This document shows positions 3,264 through 58,898 of a stretch of DNA of 64,000 nt, in pieces. The position numbers and the translations under genes were made by a program. Below the pieces are notes generated by a model. The model saw only the letters and a list, made by a program, of their open reading frames with translations, ran no database searches and had not been told where the DNA came from. Source of the stretch: a virus; IMG/VR virus record IMGVR_UViG_3300023184_004051, positions 44,671 to 108,670 of that record; one strand, 5' to 3'. Each line of letters begins with the position of its first letter. Within the stretch, counting starts at the first letter, position 1.

Positions 3264-3711
3264 TCACCATTGGACTGACGGAACTGACACAGGCTGGGAT
3301 ATTTCACCTTGGGAACTACTCCCCGGCGTTCGCACAGGCGAGGAACTGTCTCGTGGTGAAAGAGCCGCAGACATTGTTCGCAACAAGATGGGTTCGTGGG
3401 GCTTTGTTTTCACCTTCACGACCTTTATGTTCATCTGGGCAAGTGTCAATGTTGTGGTGTTCGCCAATCGGGGCTGGGACCCGTATCCGTTCATCCTGCT
3501 GAACCTGATGCTTTCGGCTCTCGCCGGACTCCAAGGGTCAATCCTTCTCATCGCAGCGAAGCGGGCTGATGCCGTTGCCGCAGAACAAGCCCTCTCGCAC
3601 CTCACGATTTCCAAAGCAAGTAGCGAAATCATCAAGGAACTGCGTAGTGAAATCCGAGCGGTCAAGACATTGGCCGAGCAAATCCAACACCACATCAAGG
3701 AGGGCAAATGA
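3256..3711 (+). CDS. DUF1003-family membrane protein
   Basis: GERAAD.V...MGSWGF and WDPYPFILLNLMLS motifs; two hydrophobic segments. Confidence 0.8.
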   Translation: MANHHWTDGTDTGWDISPWELLPGVRTGEELSRGERAADIVRNKMGSWGFVFTFTTFMFIWASVNVVVFANRGWDPYPFILLNLMLSALAGLQGSILLIAAKRADAVAAEQALSHLTISKASSEIIKELRSEIRAVKTLAEQIQHHIKEGK

Positions 3712-4202
3712 GCAAGAGTTATGAGGAAATCAACGAGTTCCTTGCCGAACAGGAACGGCTTATCACCTCAGCCAATGCCCCCAAGAACCGACTTGTCATA
3801 GATGGTCGTCGGATTGTTCGTGCGGGTTCAGGTCGTCGTGCGGTTTTCACCTTTGCCGAGTTCCCTGAAGGCGGCGACCCCCGTTTCCGTGCCGTTCTTG
3901 CTGAAATGTTGCGTATCCACATTTCCAAATCAAGCGATTATGGGACTGGCGCTGACCTTTACGCCAACTATCGGTCTGCTGAAGCCATCGGTATTCCGGC
4001 GTGGAAGTCGTGTTTCGTTCGTGCTTTGGAAAAGGTGCAGCGTTTGACGAACGCGGCTGGTGGAAAAAAACTCAACCACGAGGGCATCTCGGACAGTTTC
4101 CTTGACCTCGCCAACCACATTGTCATCAGCAAAGTTCTGTATGACGAAACCCAAGCCAAGAGTGGCGTTTGCGGCAACACTGATTGCGACTGTTCCTGCT
4201 GA
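3708..4202 (+). CDS. DUF1599-like all-alpha protein (nucleotide modification-associated)
   Basis: K..DYG....YANY, R..EKVQRL, E.I.DSFLDLANH. Confidence 0.6.
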   Translation: MSKSYEEINEFLAEQERLITSANAPKNRLVIDGRRIVRAGSGRRAVFTFAEFPEGGDPRFRAVLAEMLRIHISKSSDYGTGADLYANYRSAEAIGIPAWKSCFVRALEKVQRLTNAAGGKKLNHEGISDSFLDLANHIVISKVLYDETQAKSGVCGNTDCDCSC

Positions 4203-4269
4203 AAAGGCAAGATTTTCCAAACCTTGTGGCAGACTAGGTGTGTCCGACCAACCCTTCTAGGAGACAAAA

Positions 4270-4944
4270 GTGGCGCAGATTTTCCCCAACGATGGCTTGA
4301 ACTACCTTTTCACTCAGTTGAGTATGGGTGGAACGAACGCATCTGCCGTCAGCGCCACCTACTACGCCGGTTTGCTTTCTGGTGGAACCACTACGACTGT
4401 TCCCGCCGCTACCGCAGTTCTCGGAACGCTCGGTGGAACTTTCGTTGAAACGACTGGCTCGGGCTACGCTCGCCAAACGGTGCAGTTCAGCACCATCGCT
4501 ACCTCTAACACGGCAGTTCTCTCCGGTGCGACCATCTCCGCCGGTGGTGGAAACGGCTCTTGGGTCGTGACTGTCGCTTCTAACACTAATGTTCGTGCCG
4601 GTATGACCGCAACCCTTACGGGCGGCTCGGGAACGGAAACCAAAATCGTGACGAACACCATCGGCTCAACGCAAATCGTGTTGTCCTCGGCTATCGCTTC
4701 GGGAACGCAGACTGCGATTTCAGTAGGCGACCTCTACGCAGGTCGTAAGGTTTATCCGGGTTCAGCAATCTCTTTTGGGCCAGCAACGGGAACTTGGACA
4801 GCCGCAACGGGATACTTCATTGCGACCACCTCAGATAACTCGGGTAAGTTGTTATATGTGAGCAACTTTGCTGATGCCACTTCGCCAACCCTCGGTGCGA
4901 ACGACACTCTGACGGTCACCCCAACTATCCTGTTGAGCAACTAG
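4270..4944 (+). CDS. Putative virion structural protein
   Basis: Thr/Gly/Ser-rich; E..GSGYARQ.V.F...F..ATGTW pattern; aggag RBS. Confidence 0.55.
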   Translation: MAQIFPNDGLNYLFTQLSMGGTNASAVSATYYAGLLSGGTTTTVPAATAVLGTLGGTFVETTGSGYARQTVQFSTIATSNTAVLSGATISAGGGNGSWVVTVASNTNVRAGMTATLTGGSGTETKIVTNTIGSTQIVLSSAIASGTQTAISVGDLYAGRKVYPGSAISFGPATGTWTAATGYFIATTSDNSGKLLYVSNFADATSPTLGANDTLTVTPTILLSN

Positions 4945-4960: not shown

Positions 4961-7900
4961 ATGGCTACCCTTGTCAGCGCCTTTGGGTCCGCTAGTAGTG
5001 CGGCACTAACGGCTAGCGCCGCTTTCACTGTCCCCTATACCAACCTTCTAAGCGTTGCCCCTGCTGCGGGTGATTATGTGTTCGTTGCCCTTTGGCTGAC
5101 TCGTAATGCCGCCGCCACGCAAGCACAGTCATCAAACGGCACTTACGCCTCGGTAGCGTGTGGCTCGGTCTACCTGACCTGTATGGAGAACACCTCGGTT
5201 CCGACCAACCTCTCGGCAACCTCAACGACGCTATTTCACCAATATGGCGTTCCGGGCAACCTTTCCGCCAATGCCGTGAACCTTGCTGTTTTTGGAGCGC
5301 CTTACACGGCAGGTATGGCACGAGGCATCACCGTCACAGGGTTCAACGCCGGTGCTGCTACCGCAGTCCTTCTCTGCACCGCTATGGCAGTTCAGGGCAT
5401 CTACACGCCCCCAACAAACCCTCGGACAACGTGGTGTAAAACCATTGAGAACGGTGGAGTGGTTGACACGACATCGGGTTCCGGTTTGGCTTGGGCGAGC
5501 AATGGCGTGACCCCAAGTATCACCGCATTTGGAAGCACGAAGGTCAATAACAGCAACTTGACTTCCGCCATCGTTGATGATGTTGTAGCCGGTGCGGTGA
5601 CGGGCATCTTGAACCTTGGCTCTGCTGGCTACCAGACCACAGATTTTTCCACTAGGTATTCCAATCAAGAAGGTCTTTTTATTGGGAACCTAGATGTCAT
5701 TGGCTTTGGCGGCAATGGTGGCTCAGCAAACGTCATCGTCACAAACTCCAACAACCCCGTTCCGCCGGCCCTTTCAGGTGGCCCTAGCACTTGGACTGGC
5801 AAATACCTTGGGATTGGACAAGCGATATCGGGTGCGGATATTCCACAAGACACTTACATCACAGGCTTCAGTTATGACCCGAACTACTTGGGCTTTTTAG
5901 GCCCCACTTGGTTCGTCAACACCAATAATCTCGTCACCCCCTCCGGTCAGTTCTGGGCGGGTGCTGAACAGCCTGTCCTTGTCGTGATGTTCACCAACAA
6001 CTCAACGACTACGGCTGCTACAACTTCGGTTGGAAACACCGGAGGAACCGTCAACAACGGTCTGACCTACCTTGACCCCCAAGGGTCAACGATGTATTTC
6101 ACCTCATTTGGGTCGGCATCGGGAACTGTGGGAACGGGAACAAACACCTCGTTGCCAACTGCGGGCAGGGTGGTTGTGCCGACTTATGGTGGAAACACCA
6201 CTCTTTCGTGGACTTCCAAACCGTCTAGCACCTCCCTTGCGGGTTGCACCGCTCCATCATCACCACTTGATAAAGACCTCTATCAGTTGTGGATGGACAA
6301 TGTGCAAACCGGCTCGCAGTTTTGGGACTGCACCCCCGTCGTGACGAATAGTGGAAACGCAACCTCTCCTGCTAGCGCCCCTCCGGGCATTGAGACAGTC
6401 AAGACAGTTCTTGCTACAACCACAACGGGTTTCCAAACCGGAACTTTGGTGATGGCGTATGGGGCGAACCGTTCAGGAATAAGTCCGGTATCCCTTTTCG
6501 GACACCTTCGGCACGGCTCGGTATCATCAACCAACTTTGGATTTGGAGCGGCTTTTTCCTTCAAGCCCAACAAGTCATCCATCATTGGCACAGTGGGCGA
6601 AGTGGTGGAAACAAGAACAACTCCCGGCTCTGGCGTGTCTCGTGGGGCTATCCGCTCATCGGAAGTCATTGAGTTGGACACAGGTGAAAGTAGCGGCGCT
6701 GCTCGCACTTTGCCAAAAACCTCGGAACCATCACTATTGGCAAAAGGTGAAATCCAAAACTCAAAACAGAGCAATGTGGCATCTCAGGTCAATGAAGTGC
6801 TTTCAGCACAAGACAAGCGTGGCACAAATATTGGCGAGAAGGGCGCTGCAACTTATGGAACATTGTTCCAAGAAGTTGTTAGAGCCGTGTTATTCAGCAA
6901 ATCTAATACGGTCACGGAACTGCTTGACACGCAAAGCGTGAGAGCGCAAACGGCATATCGCCTGAGCGCCGTTAGTGAAATCTTGTCCTCAACCAGCCAG
7001 AAAACCCTGCTGCTCAACACCCTCACCAAAGCCGTCACATTTGCTCGCGGTGGGTATGTTCCAAAACTGAACAGCATCACCGGACTCGGCATCTTGGGTC
7101 AAGAAGCATTGGGCTATGGCAACTTCTACCCGACGAACAACTGGTACAACACCACTCTCGCCAAGAACTTCACGAAAACCTATGTCGAGGCGGGGGCGGT
7201 TTATCTGCTTTCCACTACCGAAAACACGAAGGCTACGATACGAAATGTCATATCAAGCGTTGCTGATGTTCCAACCTCAGCCAGCCAGCGAGCAGTCACA
7301 ATCCCACGCTCTGCTGCGGTTGCTGAAGCGCCGACAACCACATCTCAACGGTCTACCATCCGTTCCTTTGTCGCCGCCGTTGCTGAAATCTTGTCAGGAG
7401 AGAACACACGCAGCGTCAACAAGGGCAAAGTAAGCGAGGTCAACCTCACTCCAAGTGGTGAAAACCAACGACAAGTGGCGGGCAATGTCGTCGGCTCGGT
7501 TGCTGAAGCCCCCAAGAGCGCAAACGGAACTTCCAAAACTCTCGCTCGCATCACCACTGTTGTTGAAGCACTCAACACGGTGGCAACCAAAGTCCTCGTC
7601 ATAAATCGTGCCTCTGAAGTTGCTGAAAAGCCATCAGAAAGCAATACGAAGTCATCGGCATTTACTCGGTCAAGCCAAGTCTCGGAACGACCCACAACCA
7701 CATCGCAGCGTTCAGCAAGTCATTCATTTGCCACAACTGCCAACCTGTTGCTATCAGCAACCGTCACTCGTTCTGTTGGCGTGGCGAGGGCAAGTTCGGT
7801 TTACAAGGCGATTTACACCACCGCCTTTGCCATTCTCATCAAACTGACAAGCGGGTTCGTTGCGACCTTCACGGAATACCCAAAGACTGAGGGTTTCACC

Positions 7901-8361: not shown

Positions 8362-8856
8362 ATGAGTTGGACTTACTCTGCCGACCCAAGTTCCTCAACG
8401 AAAGATGCCGTTCGTTTTCTCATTGGTGATACCGATGAGACAGCCCAGCAGATGACGGATGAGGAAATCTACTTCAACCTCACCGAAGTTGGTGGTGAAA
8501 TCTATCGTGCCGCTTCCAATACTTGCTACAACCTTGCCGCCCGATACACGGGTGAAGCGCAAAGCACGAGCAAGAGCGTTGGTGGGTTGTCTCTAAGCAA
8601 GAGCCTTGGCGACAGAGCGCAACGCTATGAACGCCTTGCCAAAGACCTGTTGATACGCTCACGCCGTATTTCACCACCCGTTCCAAATGCCGACCCAGAT
8701 GCCCTCGGTGCGGAACTGTATGTGGGCAAGTTTGACCGCTACTACGCCACCCCGAACTATTGGCCGTCTAGCAGCGTGACGGGCGTTTCCACCACCTATG
8801 GCACAAACTACGAACCCGGTGAGGGAGGCGTGGCCGGAAGCGGTCAAGAGCCATAA
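8362..8856 (+). CDS. Head-tail adaptor/connector
   Basis: MSWTYS.DP...KDAVRFLIGDTD...SVGGLSLS; position in the morphogenesis operon. Confidence 0.65.
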   Translation: MSWTYSADPSSSTKDAVRFLIGDTDETAQQMTDEEIYFNLTEVGGEIYRAASNTCYNLAARYTGEAQSTSKSVGGLSLSKSLGDRAQRYERLAKDLLIRSRRISPPVPNADPDALGAELYVGKFDRYYATPNYWPSSSVTGVSTTYGTNYEPGEGGVAGSGQEP

Positions 8857-54703: not shown

Positions 54704-55318
54704 ATGTCCGACACTTCCAATACTCCCGAGTTCACCTTGCCGCCCCTTCCCGAAAAGGGTAAGAGGACAGGCAGAAAGACCCTTCTCACCCCAGAGGTCA
54801 CCGATGCCGTTGTAAGGCTTCTCAAAGCCGGAAACTACCTCAGTCAAACAGCACGGTATCTCGGCCTAGACCCAACCACTCTGAACAGTTGGAGGGCAAG
54901 AGGGAACGAACTGATGGCAAGTGGGAGGGAGGATTTGGATGAATACGAACAAATGTTCGTAGACTTCTCCATTGCCGTAGAGAGTGCAAAGGCTGAGGCT
55001 GAAATCAGGGCAGTAGACATCATCCGCAAGGCTATGCCGAAAGATTGGCGAGCAGCAACTTGGTATTTGGAAAGAACCAACAACCGAGATTGGGGAGCAA
55101 CCCAACGGACAGAGGTATCAGGCCCAGATGGAGGGGCTATCCCGATAGATGTGGACAGTGTGTATCGGAAGTTGGAAGCGGTCACCCAAAGGGTCGTTTT
55201 GGAAGCCGAGATTGCATCTCAGCCGACAGAGAGTGCGGAACTACCAGAGAGTGCCGGAGATGGTGAAATAGAGGCCAATGAGCCGGTTGTAGAGAGTGAA
55301 CCGAATAAGGCGTTATGA
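54704..55318 (+). CDS. terS: Terminase small subunit
   Basis: GRKT.LT, HTH, DWRAA.WYLER...WG...E.SGPDGG.I; lies upstream of terL. Confidence 0.75.
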   Translation: MSDTSNTPEFTLPPLPEKGKRTGRKTLLTPEVTDAVVRLLKAGNYLSQTARYLGLDPTTLNSWRARGNELMASGREDLDEYEQMFVDFSIAVESAKAEAEIRAVDIIRKAMPKDWRAATWYLERTNNRDWGATQRTEVSGPDGGAIPIDVDSVYRKLEAVTQRVVLEAEIASQPTESAELPESAGDGEIEANEPVVESEPNKAL

Positions 55319-55447
55319 CCCAATATTGGCGTTATGACAGCCCTGCCCTTACGAGCCTCGGAACTTCCCTTCCCAAAACTCAACCGTCGTTTAGTGAAAT
55401 CCAATAAAAGACTTGACTTTGGATGTGGGTTGCGTTAGCCTGCGTTT

Positions 55448-55584
55448 GGCCGCAACAAGGCGGCCCAAAAACATAGAAGTTCAGGGACTACACACCCTGC
55501 ACCTCTACCGCAAACAGCGAACAAGAGCCGGCCCCGCCACAAGACTGACCTGTCCAAGTCAGAGGGGTCGGCTTGTTGCGTTGT
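55448..55584 (+). ncRNA. Predicted structured small RNA (RNA-C)
   Basis: TTGACT(55413)-17-TAGCCT promoter; three consecutive hairpins; no ORF with an RBS. Confidence 0.45.
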
Positions 55585-55633
55585 AGGGCATTGACGGTTA
55601 GTGAAATGTGCGATTACGCTCTTGGTTGAAGTG

Positions 55634-55716
55634 GCCGCTACAGAAACCCATAGGTCTAAAGGGTCTGCAACCTTTACTGACGAGTAGGGCGCTGCTTCTA
55701 GGGCAACAGCAGACCC
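55634..55716 (+). ncRNA. Hammerhead ribozyme candidate (type II topology with pseudoknot)
   Basis: GAAA 55643-46; stem III ACC/GGT; GTC cleavage triplet 55654-56; stem I TAAAGG/CCTTTA; CTGACGA 55677-83; stem II CTAC/GTAG; loop I GTCTGC can pair with GCAGAC 55709-14. One extra A at 55642. Confidence 0.65.
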
Positions 55717-55718
55717 GC

Positions 55719-55785
55719 CTCCCTTTTGCGACGGCGGGGAGTTTTTGGCTAAGACCTCCGCACTATGCGGGGGTCTTAGTTATTT
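55719..55785 (+). terminator. Two tandem terminator hairpins
   Basis: ctccc...gggag-ttttt, and ctaagacctccgca-c-ta-tgcgggggtcttag-ttattt. Confidence 0.6.
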
Positions 55786-55896
55786 CACTACGATGCGCTC
55801 GCTCGACAAAAAACCCCGAGTTTTGGAAAACTCCGCAGATTTCAGCAGATTTTCGTAGACGAAAAACCCCCCGTTCCAAAACGCAACACGGGCAGA

Positions 55897-56019
55897 CAAA
55901 AACCCCCTCGCAAGCGAAAACAAGGGGGCTTCGTCTTAGTTAGGGAGGGCAACACCGCAGCCGTCGTCGAATGAATACCGACTAAGGAAAAACAGAGAAA
56001 CGACGACTACGGGTTGCCG
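55897..56019 (-). ncRNA. Predicted antisense sRNA-A
   Basis: TTGACA(56049-54)-17-TATGAT(56026-31); long stem with a pyrimidine-rich loop containing TTCCTTAGTCGGTAT; terminator at 55897-55933. Confidence 0.65.
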
Positions 56020-56104
56020 ACTCACATCATAAAGCGAACACAGGTTCGTGTCAAGCGGTATGTGACACCCCCCTCGTAAACTTGTTCCCGGAGGGGTCTG
56101 TCTC

Positions 56105-56198
56105 CGTACAGCGCAAGACCCCCACCGGAGGTCGGTGAGGGTCTTATGCGCCCGACTAAGAGCGAGCGGCGGCGACGAAGTGGGGGCTTCATCACCTG
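56105..56198 (-). ncRNA. Predicted antisense sRNA-B
   Basis: TTGCAT(56227-32)-17-TAGAGT(56204-09); 5' hairpin, linker containing CTTAGTCGG, 3' GC-rich hairpin. Confidence 0.55.
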
Positions 56199-56239
56199 CA
56201 ACTACTCTATCACGGTTGAGTGACCAATGCAAATCGGGC

Positions 56240-56661
56240 AAAGAAAAAAGCCCCACCCCGAAGGGTGAGGCTCTGTCTCGCAAGGCTACTTATCGGATTT
56301 CCCTTTTCCTCAGGCTAACCGCTCTCGCTCCCCACTTCCTAGACAGCGCGGCTACACCTCCTACGAGTGCCACTTCTAGGCTTGCCCGCACACTTGCGCG
56401 ATTGGGCTTTGAGTATTTGTGACCCGATGAGTCTGGCGTGTCACCCTGCTAGCCCACACGCCTTTGGATGGAAGGTCAAGCGCAACCTGCCGGCCCGCTA
56501 TCGCTCGTCATCCTCCGGCGCAGAACGCACATAGGGATTTCCCTTTCTAAGAGGTAGACCCCCCCAAACTGCTCAGCCTTAGAAGCCCGCAGCCCAAAGT
56601 GACACAACACACCCATCGGATTTCGTTGTCAAGGAACTTCGTGAGGTCTACCGCCCCTCAC
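56240..56661 (-). ncRNA. Predicted ~360-420 nt structured RNA of unknown class
   Basis: TTGACT(56691-96)-17-TATGGT promoter (weaker second TTGACA at 56627-32); multiple stems; TTCG-loop terminator with T-run at 56240-56272. Confidence 0.5.
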
Positions 56662-56722
56662 GCAACTACCATACACCACTCTAGTTTGGAAGTCAAGTCA
56701 TTTGGAAAGAATATTTCCAAAC

Positions 56723-56836
56723 TCAACAACCTTCCTCTCGCATCTGGCTCAACAGCATCTCATCTGCGAGTGCTTCCAAGTCCTCGTCGGACATACCCTC
56801 GAAGTTGCTCGCTACCATCTCATCCCAAGTCATCAT
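56723..56836 (-). CDS. 37-aa acidic microprotein
   Basis: MMTWDEMVASNFEGMSDEDLEALADEMLLSQMREEGC; gaggtg RBS; TTGACT(56895-900)-17-TAGAGT promoter. Confidence 0.55.
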   Translation of the reverse strand: MMTWDEMVASNFEGMSDEDLEALADEMLLSQMREEGC

Positions 56837-56965
56837 CAGTCACCTCGTTCTCGTTGTATCTACTACACCACACTCTATCAAGAGGGTGTCACATAGTCAA
56901 GTCATTTTGGAAATATTATTTGGCGGCCCCTTGCTCGACACCACCCCTCCTTGTATTTTGGAAGT

Positions 56966-57145
56966 ATGAGCGCATACAACGGATTAGACACGACCACAGG
57001 AAACATCACCCCACTCTGGCTCTGCGATGAGGCAGGCTGCAATCTCGGATGTGAGGTTGGAACACCAGAGGCCGAAGGCTGGCTTGCCACCGAGGAAGCA
57101 CACTTCTGTCCTACCCACGTCATTTCTCGCTTCGGCAGCAAGTAG
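56966..57145 (+). CDS. Small Cys/His protein
   Basis: CD..GC...GW......HFCP.H. Confidence 0.45.
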   Translation: MSAYNGLDTTTGNITPLWLCDEAGCNLGCEVGTPEAEGWLATEEAHFCPTHVISRFGSK

Positions 57146-57310: not shown

Positions 57311-58276
57311 ATGAACCAAATCATCCAGCGGCTTTTGGAAGCCGGCCCCGAACAGAAGCGGCAAATCTTGTCGAGTCTGTCAAAAGACGAGTTAGCAGTC
57401 GTCTACCGTGAGTTGGAAGTCATCGAAAGCAGCCCAACACGGCGTTGGTATTGCCCCCGTGAGGTCTGCAACGGCGAGCCACACGCAGGATTTCACTGGT
57501 GCGACCACCCGATTGACGGGAACCACACGCCATACTGCAAGCACGCTCGAACACCACAGCGCCCGCCGGAGGAAACGGCAGACAAGCCGTGGCTTACTTG
57601 GTTCTTTAGCGGCGGTCGAGGAACGGGAAAGACACGAGCCGGAGCCGAGTGGGTTTTGGATTTGGTATGGAACCAAGGCTACAAGCGCATCGCACTTGTC
57701 GGTCGAACACCAGCCGATGTCCGAGATGTGATGATTTACGGGGATAGTGGAATAATGTCCGTGAGCGACCCCCATCCCCGCCCCACACACGAGCCGACCA
57801 AGCGCAGGCTCATCTGGCCGAATGGGGCGCAAGCCTTCACCTATTCCGCCGCCGCTCCGAGTCAGTTGCGTGGCCCTCAGCACGATGCGGCGTGGTGCGA
57901 TGAGTTGGCCGCTTGGACTGACGCTCCAAAGGGCGATGTTTTGGACACCTCTTGGAACAACCTGATGCTCGGCTTGCGTCTGGGGACAAATCCAAAGGCG
58001 CTCGTCACCACCACTCCAAAACGAGTCAAGTTGGTTCGACAAGTTATGGAGCGTCGAACAACCGTGATTACACAAGGAACGACCTACGAGAACCTTTCCA
58101 ATATGGCCGCTTCCTTCCGTGAGAACGTGCTTGCGGCCTACGAAGGCACACGCATTGGCGAACAGGAGTTGATGGGAACCCTCCTGACAGATGTTGACGG
58201 TGCAATGTGGACTTTGGAAATGCTCGAAAATCGAGCCGAACTTGTCGCAAGCGTGCGAGCGGGGCTAGATGATTAG
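57311..58276 (+). CDS. terL: Terminase large subunit, ATPase half
   Basis: GGRGTGKT, LRGPQ...AWCDE, TTTPK, QEL.G. Confidence 0.85.
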   Translation: MNQIIQRLLEAGPEQKRQILSSLSKDELAVVYRELEVIESSPTRRWYCPREVCNGEPHAGFHWCDHPIDGNHTPYCKHARTPQRPPEETADKPWLTWFFSGGRGTGKTRAGAEWVLDLVWNQGYKRIALVGRTPADVRDVMIYGDSGIMSVSDPHPRPTHEPTKRRLIWPNGAQAFTYSAAAPSQLRGPQHDAAWCDELAAWTDAPKGDVLDTSWNNLMLGLRLGTNPKALVTTTPKRVKLVRQVMERRTTVITQGTTYENLSNMAASFRENVLAAYEGTRIGEQELMGTLLTDVDGAMWTLEMLENRAELVASVRAGLDD

Positions 58277-58898
58277 AGTCACGCCAGACGATTTCACTCG
58301 CATCGTCATAGGGGTTGACCCATCCGTGACTTCAGGCGAGAGCGCAGACGAAACGGGCATCGTTGTAGTTGCAGCCGGCCCACACCAGCCCGATACTTGC
58401 GTGATTGAGACTTGCGACAGCCACGGCTATGTGCTACAGGATGCGACGCTCGCCAAGACCAACAAGAACAGCGTTGACGCTTGGGTGCAACGGGTCATCG
58501 AGGTCTTTGACGATTGGAACGCCAACCTTGTTGTGGTGGAAAGTAATCAGGGCCACGAACTTTTGGAAATGGCGCTGCGGACAAAGCGGCCTGACCTACC
58601 CATCAGCAGACCGAACGCCAAGGAGAACAAGAAGGCACGAGCCGAACCCATTGTGGCGCTCTACGAGCAGGGTCGAGTTCACCACGTTGGCGACGCTGCG
58701 CAGTTCGCTCAGTTGGAGGAACAGATGACGACTTGGGTTCCATCACCAGACGGCAAGCGGCGAGGCAAGTCACCTGACCGCGTTGACGCTCTTGTATGGG
58801 CGCTCGCGGAACTGAACTTGCAGGGCAAGAAATACCGCAAGCAGTTGGAAGCGTTTGCTCCGGTCAACTTCGAGCAACGCAATATGTGGCGTATCTAA
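58269..58898 (+). CDS. terL: Terminase large subunit, nuclease half (separate ORF, +1 frame)
   Basis: RIVIGVDP......DETGI, E.NQG, K..RAEP...LYEQGRVHH, SPDR.DALVWA. Confidence 0.85.
   Translation: MIRVTPDDFTRIVIGVDPSVTSGESADETGIVVVAAGPHQPDTCVIETCDSHGYVLQDATLAKTNKNSVDAWVQRVIEVFDDWNANLVVVESNQGHELLEMALRTKRPDLPISRPNAKENKKARAEPIVALYEQGRVHHVGDAAQFAQLEEQMTTWVPSPDGKRRGKSPDRVDALVWALAELNLQGKKYRKQLEAFAPVNFEQRNMWRI

Follow-up and report, generated by a model that had tools for sequence, protein, structure and literature searches.

No small ribozyme has been studied better than the hammerhead, whose core of 13 bases is regarded as nearly inviolable. The locus described here raises the question of whether a phage element carrying every part of this core, but with one extra A beside the catalytic G12, is a genuine hammerhead and whether it still cuts. 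Should an A at this position be tolerated, or even conserved, the core would have been defined too strictly and current searches would be missing part of the phage hammerheads. The candidate provides a compact 120-nt test case in which removal of one base restores the canonical core, and its location in an unusual RNA-gene island between the terminase genes terS and terL could show a hammerhead role in phage late transcripts.

The source record is a linear sequence of 108,670 bp, estimated by IMG/VR to be 87% complete, and the window analyzed here is its right-hand 64 kb. The DNA sequencing runs containing the region are lake and freshwater metagenomes, and no RNA run was found to contain it. 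Contigs from a second DNA run were identical to the record where they overlap it, with positions 55509-55782 lying outside them. Re-reading of the sequence bore out the first-pass annotation, which had placed all hammerhead parts here in type II order. The features of the element are as follows.

55628-55637 (+): 5' strand of the helix II extension, from the minimum-energy fold
55638-55641 (+): stem II strand CTAC (11.4-11.1), matched by the descriptor
55642 (+): extra A between C11.1 and G12, read from the sequence
55643-55646 (+): GAAA (G12 to A15.1), from sequence and descriptor
55646-55648 with 55653-55655 (+): stem III ACC/GGT, 3 bp, with loop CATA, from sequence and descriptor
55656 (+): C17, with the predicted cut 3' of it, from sequence, descriptor and covariance model R1
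55657-55662 with 55671-55676 (+): stem I TAAAGG/CCTTTA, 6 bp, with the 8-nt loop GTCTGCAA, from the minimum-energy fold
55677-55683 (+): core strand CTGACGA (C3 to A9), from sequence, descriptor and model R1
55684-55687 (+): stem II strand GTAG (10.1-10.4), from sequence, descriptor and model R1
55688-55698 (+): 3' strand of the helix II extension, pairing with 55628-55637 in 9 pairs with small bulges
55709-55716 (+): possible loop I partner GCAGAC(CC), able to form a 6-bp pseudoknot or an 8-bp helix, from sequence and centroid structure

All hammerhead core bases (C3, U4, G5, A6, N7, G8, A9, G12, A13, A14 and H17) are present, and the three pairs adjoining the core can be formed, namely A55646-T55655 (A15.1-U16.1), G55684-C55641 (10.1-11.1) and T55657-A55676 (1.1-2.1). 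The C15.2-G16.2 pair and a GUC cleavage site are present as well. The junction between stem II (11.1) and G12, which should be uninterrupted, is interrupted by A55642. Loops close stems I and III and stem II is open, which is the type II topology, and the stem lengths matched by the descriptor are 6, 4 and 3 pairs.

Stem II continues outward, giving helix II a total of 4 + 9 pairs. The extension has an energy of -17.1 kcal/mol, compared with -7.2 +/- 3.0 kcal/mol for random pairs of genomic flanks (p = 0.005). Only 0.2 kcal/mol separates the hammerhead-compatible fold from the minimum-energy fold, and the folding energy of the 119-nt unit as a whole is no better than that of shuffled sequence (z = -0.2).

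A pseudoknot between loop I and the 3' tail had also been proposed, and its complementarity was found as described, GTCTGC in loop I (55663-55668) matching GCAGAC at 55709-55714 over 6 bp (p = 0.04 for a loop-to-tail match of this length). Its placement is less regular, since the partner starts 21 nt 3' of stem II and 10 nt past the extended helix rather than adjoining stem II. The match is extendable to an 8-bp helix, GGGTCTGC/GCAGACCC, which would compete with the top of stem I. This competing helix is the sole basis of the earlier suggestion that the element is a switchable variant; the helix is possible, and the switch is a reading of it.

The rate at which such an arrangement is expected by chance is low. 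The candidate was the sole match in the window of a hammerhead descriptor covering three topologies, even with relaxed stems, and the descriptor gave 0 matches on 300 dinucleotide shuffles. Among compact motifs (span <=60 nt) in 1200 shuffles, 11 were found at stems 3/2/3, 2 at 4/2/3 and none higher. Extrapolation to 6/4/3, at about a quarter per added pair and with three topologies and five junction variants (15 combinations) pooled, gives ~1e-5 compact chance motifs per 64-kb window, and the expectation for the candidate's own combination of topology and insertion is below about 1e-5 per window. A provisional verdict of chance motif, reached at 4-8e-4 per window with spans up to 200 nt, was overturned by the compact-motif estimate together with scans of contig collections.

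In these scans, the candidate pattern (CAGAAACC, a short loop, GGTC, a hairpin-sized gap and then CTGANGAG) matched 18 places in IMG/VR and, in prokaryote genomes totalling 596 Gb, 28 (about 41 counted over both collections); none of the matches had comparable helices I and II. The same pattern minus the extra A recovered at least 119 loci; among the matches listed, 109 were unique and at least 84 were well-formed type II hammerheads. Phage loci retrieved because of unrelated pattern matches, ~1 Mb in all, additionally contained two unselected canonical hammerheads. The scan and shuffle counts together indicate that real hammerheads are orders of magnitude commoner in phage DNA than comparable chance motifs. 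Type II patterns with AA gave chance matches only, as did single-A type II patterns in prokaryote genomes, and no other type II hammerhead with an extra A before G12 was found in the pattern scans of IMG/VR and prokaryote genomes.

The Infernal search with Rfam models that had been suggested as a check found no family reaching its gathering score anywhere in the window, and the surroundings of the candidate gave no match even at E <= 10. When the phage genome was searched with RF02276 and RF00008, the candidate site was absent from the matches, and the gathering threshold of RF02276 (37 bits) was not reached by the candidate. This silence was first taken as evidence against a ribozyme, a position dropped once covarying variants with the same insertion proved to be missed by Rfam too; for that reason it is weak evidence.

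A covariance model, R1, was trained on 40 phage type II hammerheads that are canonical and equal in length, and was run on the window with filters off. The candidate was the top match, with 19.6 bits (E = 7e-5), followed by a next best of 12.2 bits, and on the whole 108.7-kb phage it was the only match at E <= 10 (E = 1.2e-4). Control loci totalling 377 kb gave at most 10.5 bits. The score is nevertheless modest, as false local alignments that skip both hairpins reach ~19 bits in loci selected for core-like words.

These results bear on the possibility that the element is a chance near-match within a small structured transcript, or a terminator region, that has nothing to do with hammerheads. 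By extrapolation, ~1-2 compact motifs with one junction insertion are expected over ~250,000 windows, the R1 score falls within the range of false local matches, and the candidate comes without an Rfam match, a homologue or an unusual folding energy. Against coincidence stand the expectation of ~1e-5 per window for all 15 combinations, lower still for the candidate's own, and the finding that no pattern match in the viral and prokaryote collections had the helices. The helix II extension and the loop I partner are independent extras that were unused in the search, the element lies in the ~5% of the genome left uncovered by the ORF map, and real hammerheads, including those with this insertion, are far commoner in phage DNA than such motifs. 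Coincidence is thus considered very unlikely. The claim of a type II hammerhead with A55642 as its sole defect is well supported computationally by the low chance rate, the R1 match and the conservation of the insertion in other phage hammerheads, and the candidate is very probably a real hammerhead fold.

The insertion itself has natural counterparts. An alignment termed A3 comprises a type I family with an invariant A before G12, whose 8 unique members lie on 7 IMG/VR contigs (L271 with two copies, L331, L347, L360, L365, L366 and L371). The two L271 copies, at 7563-7618 and 8783-8835, are 1.2 kb apart. In this family a single A stands between a stem II of 9-11 bp and GAAA, stem I has 4-5 bp and stem III 3 bp. 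Pairing is retained in 99.3% of the alignment cells, and at 6 pairs both partners have changed. Covariation at this level was reached in no shuffle, and pairing fell to 21-58% when the partners were shifted by 1-3 columns.

Two type III hammerheads carry A residues at the same junction between 11.1 and G12, L299 with a single A and stems 5/7/5, and L223 with AA. L299 and both L271 copies are intergenic and lie just 5' of a ribosome-binding site. Searches of L271, L299 and L223 against the Rfam models gave nothing at E <= 10. A long helix II is common to all the A-insertion examples.

The opposite junction strand carries insertions too. An extra nucleotide between A9 and G10.1 was found in 13 phage type II hammerheads (12 with U, 1 with A) versus 138 canonical ones from the same loci, the loci concerned being L114, L128, L132 (four copies), L185, L187, L188, L208, L213 and L220. 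For the insertion between 11.1 and G12, an incomplete literature search yielded no description or assay. The kind of hammerhead is known, and no earlier description seems to exist of this variant, in which an A adjoins G12 and helix II is long. The reference survey of hammerheads discarded hits with a core change or a mispair adjoining the core (PMC3088659). On our reading of its method this filter also excluded junction insertions, which would explain why the A-insertion forms are missing from curated models.

A being present beside G12 also underlies a second alternative, that the RNA is genuinely derived from a hammerhead yet non-cutting or very slow, the extra A and the minimal stem III having disabled catalysis. 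The junction would then persist in a small RNA, as a 3'-end structure, or as a recent relic. The statistics that exclude chance apply equally to such a derivative, and the extra A adjoins G12, the general base of the hammerhead (PMC6155905). Other natural core insertions, A6a and those of the saltern 2a/2b variants, give low activity (PMC3088659), the stem III and the pseudoknot spacing are atypical, and the element is absent from the relatives L006 and L016. Several observations argue the other way. Apart from A55642 there is no decay, every core base and closing pair being consensus, and the A3 family retains the identical insertion while its stems evolve by compensatory changes, which argues that it is tolerated. 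In addition, an extra A or U on the opposite junction strand is compatible with activity and is frequent in phage type II hammerheads, as counted above. In the plus-strand hammerhead of chrysanthemum chlorotic mottle viroid (CChMVd), where A10 lies between A9 and G10.1, the insertion slows cleavage only moderately, and with U in its place the rate is even higher (De la Pena and Flores 2001, as summarized in PMC3705267). Loss or severe slowing of catalysis is rated a less likely reading. From the sequence, we lean slightly towards 55638-55687 being a candidate active, self-cleaving type II hammerhead of an unusual subclass.

The surroundings of the element were compared next with those of related phages. 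It lies within a 1.3-kb gene-poor, non-coding stretch running from terS to terL.

54704-55318 (+): small terminase gene terS, upstream of the candidate, PHROG terminase small subunit, E = 3e-27
56599-57030: ORF without known function, downstream of the candidate
57311-58276 and 58269-58898: large terminase terL in two ORFs, downstream of the candidate

A 111-codon ORF at 55608-55943 that overlaps the candidate gave no family match in a PHROG search. RtcB or RNA-ligase domains that might use the cleavage products were not found in the phage record. The large terminase is split into an ATPase ORF of 321/322 aa and a nuclease ORF of 209 aa that overlap by 8 nt. The same split occurs in relatives (L006:2933-3901 and 3894-4523; L016:2374-3342 and 3335-3964), and it is not an assembly error, as the arrangement is identical in three diverged relatives.

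No homologue of the candidate was found by exact 25-mer search of viral contigs, by blastn against GenBank phages, or by blastn and nhmmer against 80 metagenome loci linked to terS, so the candidate locus has no covariation support. The closest relatives whose loci were compared are L006 and L016, with terS 75% and 60% identical; the closest terS proteins are P0003 (84%) and P0005 (80%). Both L006 and L016 are without the candidate and share at this place an unrelated unit of promoter, small RNA and terminator.

The spacer between terS and terL has further features of its own. Its only part conserved in relatives is window 55939-56340 (-), with 72-75% identity and counterparts at L006:2022-2422 and at L016:1051-1264 and 1753-1854. 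This part holds a conserved minus-strand promoter, TTGACA-17-TATGAT at 56054-56026, and a repeated box, CTTAGTCGG; its hairpins show compensatory changes, and Rfam gave no match. A minus-strand tRNA-Ala(UGC) is present in the spacer of L006 (1847-1920) and L016 (871-946), and a tRNA-Asn in that of L014/L015. The window is without any tRNA and has extra terminator-like hairpins at 55807-55900, where L006 and L016 have tRNA-Ala.

At the end of terS, a direct repeat at window 55309-55338 consists of two copies of GGCGTTATGAC, 19 nt apart. A doubled GGGCGTGA(A)TGACCG stands at the corresponding end of terS in L006 (1413-1450) and L016 (about 410-450), and the repeat may be a protein-binding or packaging site. 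Several octamers are over-represented in the 108.7 kb, namely TAGTGAAA with 100 copies, TGCTGAAA with 103, TGGTGAAA with 77 and GTTTTGGA/TTTTGGAA with 85/82, where ~2.5 are expected per octamer. Examples in the window lie at 55392, 55599, 55790 (-) and 57304, and the same words are present in L006 and L016. Their occurrence on both strands, in multiple reading frames and in intergenic DNA too points to a signal at the DNA level.

How the element would be transcribed is suggested by its flanks.

55591-55596 and 55615-55620 (+): promoter-like TTGACG-18-TACGCT, with 8/12 consensus positions
55716-55746 (+): terminator-like hairpin with T5, from sequence and fold
55749-55785 (+): second hairpin with 14-nt arms (93% complementarity) and a T-rich run after it, from an inverted-repeat scan

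The first-pass annotation had given the element its own promoter and a terminator, and in both cases the sequence is present but fails the rules of the respective scan. The promoter is weak, and the genome-wide octamer TAGTGAAA falls within the spacer of the site at 55591-55620. Its sole extra support is that the transcript is predicted to start at ~55628, the base with which the extended helix II begins. The hairpin and T5 of the terminator end at 55746, and the scan leaves it unreported because of a loop of more than 8 nt or the 3-nt spacer between. A second plus-strand unit lies upstream at 55414-55585 (+), where a promoter-like TTGACT-17-TAGCCT is followed by ~130 nt and the unit is closed by a 16-nt long-range inverted repeat (55451-55466 with 55565-55580). 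As this unit is without a clear terminator, its transcripts may enter the hammerhead.

The weakness of the promoter and the octamer in its spacer agree with a real ribozyme that acts in read-through transcripts of the terS operon and processes late polycistronic RNA from terS to terL, the promoter being fortuitous. No convincing terminator lies between the end of terS at 55318 and the element, and the intergenic hammerheads L299 and L271 stand just upstream of a ribosome-binding site. The coincidence of the predicted start with the first base of helix II speaks against read-through, as do the two terminator-like hairpins directly after the element and the lack of any plus-strand gene for the next ~850 nt. 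Read-through is rated rather unlikely; it is a variant of the active-ribozyme reading and not exclusive of it, so that its rating is conditional and overlaps with the one given to that reading.

For an active hammerhead, the following course can be proposed. Transcription would start at the weak promoter (55591-55620) or reach the element by read-through from terS, and the RNA would fold co-transcriptionally into a three-way junction and cut after C55656. The upstream product would bear a 2',3'-cyclic phosphate end on the stem III hairpin, and the downstream product, of ~90 nt with a 5'-OH, would extend to the terminator at ~55746, both products staying annealed via helix II. Loop I may dock on GCAGAC at 55709-55714, and the 8-bp version of this pairing could refold the product. 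The likely role would be the cutting or stabilizing of RNA in the terS-terL RNA island.

A broader proposal is offered tentatively. Hammerheads with 1-2 A before G12 and a long helix II, which would occur in phages in all three topologies, may constitute a subclass invisible to databases, of which the candidate would be the first type II member and, at the same time, an autonomous RNA gene running from promoter to terminator, with cleavage or product refolding governed by the distal pairing of loop I.

Compared with known type II hammerheads of bacteria and phages (RF02276; Perreault et al. 2011, PMC3088659), the candidate shares the order of elements (stem II strand, GAAA, stem III, UH site, stem I, CUGANGA, stem II strand), the full core, a site between phage genes and a loop I complementary to downstream sequence; phage hammerheads usually sit in non-coding stretches (PMC3088659). 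It departs from them in the extra A between C11.1 and G12, in a helix II of 13 pairs versus 3-4 in 79/84 canonical members among the matches listed, and in a stem III of 3 pairs versus at least 5 in 82/84 of the same set, only 1/84 among the matches listed having a stem III as short. The type II pseudoknot joins loop I by at least 4 pairs to bases directly 3' of stem II in the majority of members, and spacing changes around it cost orders of magnitude in rate (PMC3088659). This adjacent pseudoknot was seen in 30/84 canonical type II hammerheads among the matches listed.

Natural hammerheads with an insertion within the core or next to it, a number of them phage-borne, also include the saltern variants with 2a/2b insertions near C3 and the A6a and U13a variants, which differ from the candidate in their insertion sites and of which several are weakly active or dependent on high salt (PMC3088659). 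The plus-strand hammerhead of CChMVd similarly retains one extra nucleotide at the junction of stem II and core in nature; unlike the candidate, it is a viroid type III ribozyme with the insertion on the opposite junction strand (PMC3705267). Where phage type II hammerheads were found to have a counterpart of its A10, the extra base is usually U (12/13).

The closest likeness is to the A3 family, L299 and L223, which have A at the same junction, a helix II of 7-11 pairs, a location in intergenic phage DNA and no response from Rfam. The A3 family also shares the 3-bp ACC/GGU stem III with a loop of 4 to 5 nt, a shortness partly imposed by the search pattern. In these relatives in form, stem I or III is open instead of stem II, and there is no detectable sequence homology with the candidate beyond the core; covariation supports the A3 family and not the candidate. 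The proposed class comprises hammerheads with 1-2 A at the junction of 11.1 and G12, a core that otherwise follows the consensus and at least 7 pairs in helix II, and the candidate, which has one A there, shows all of these features.
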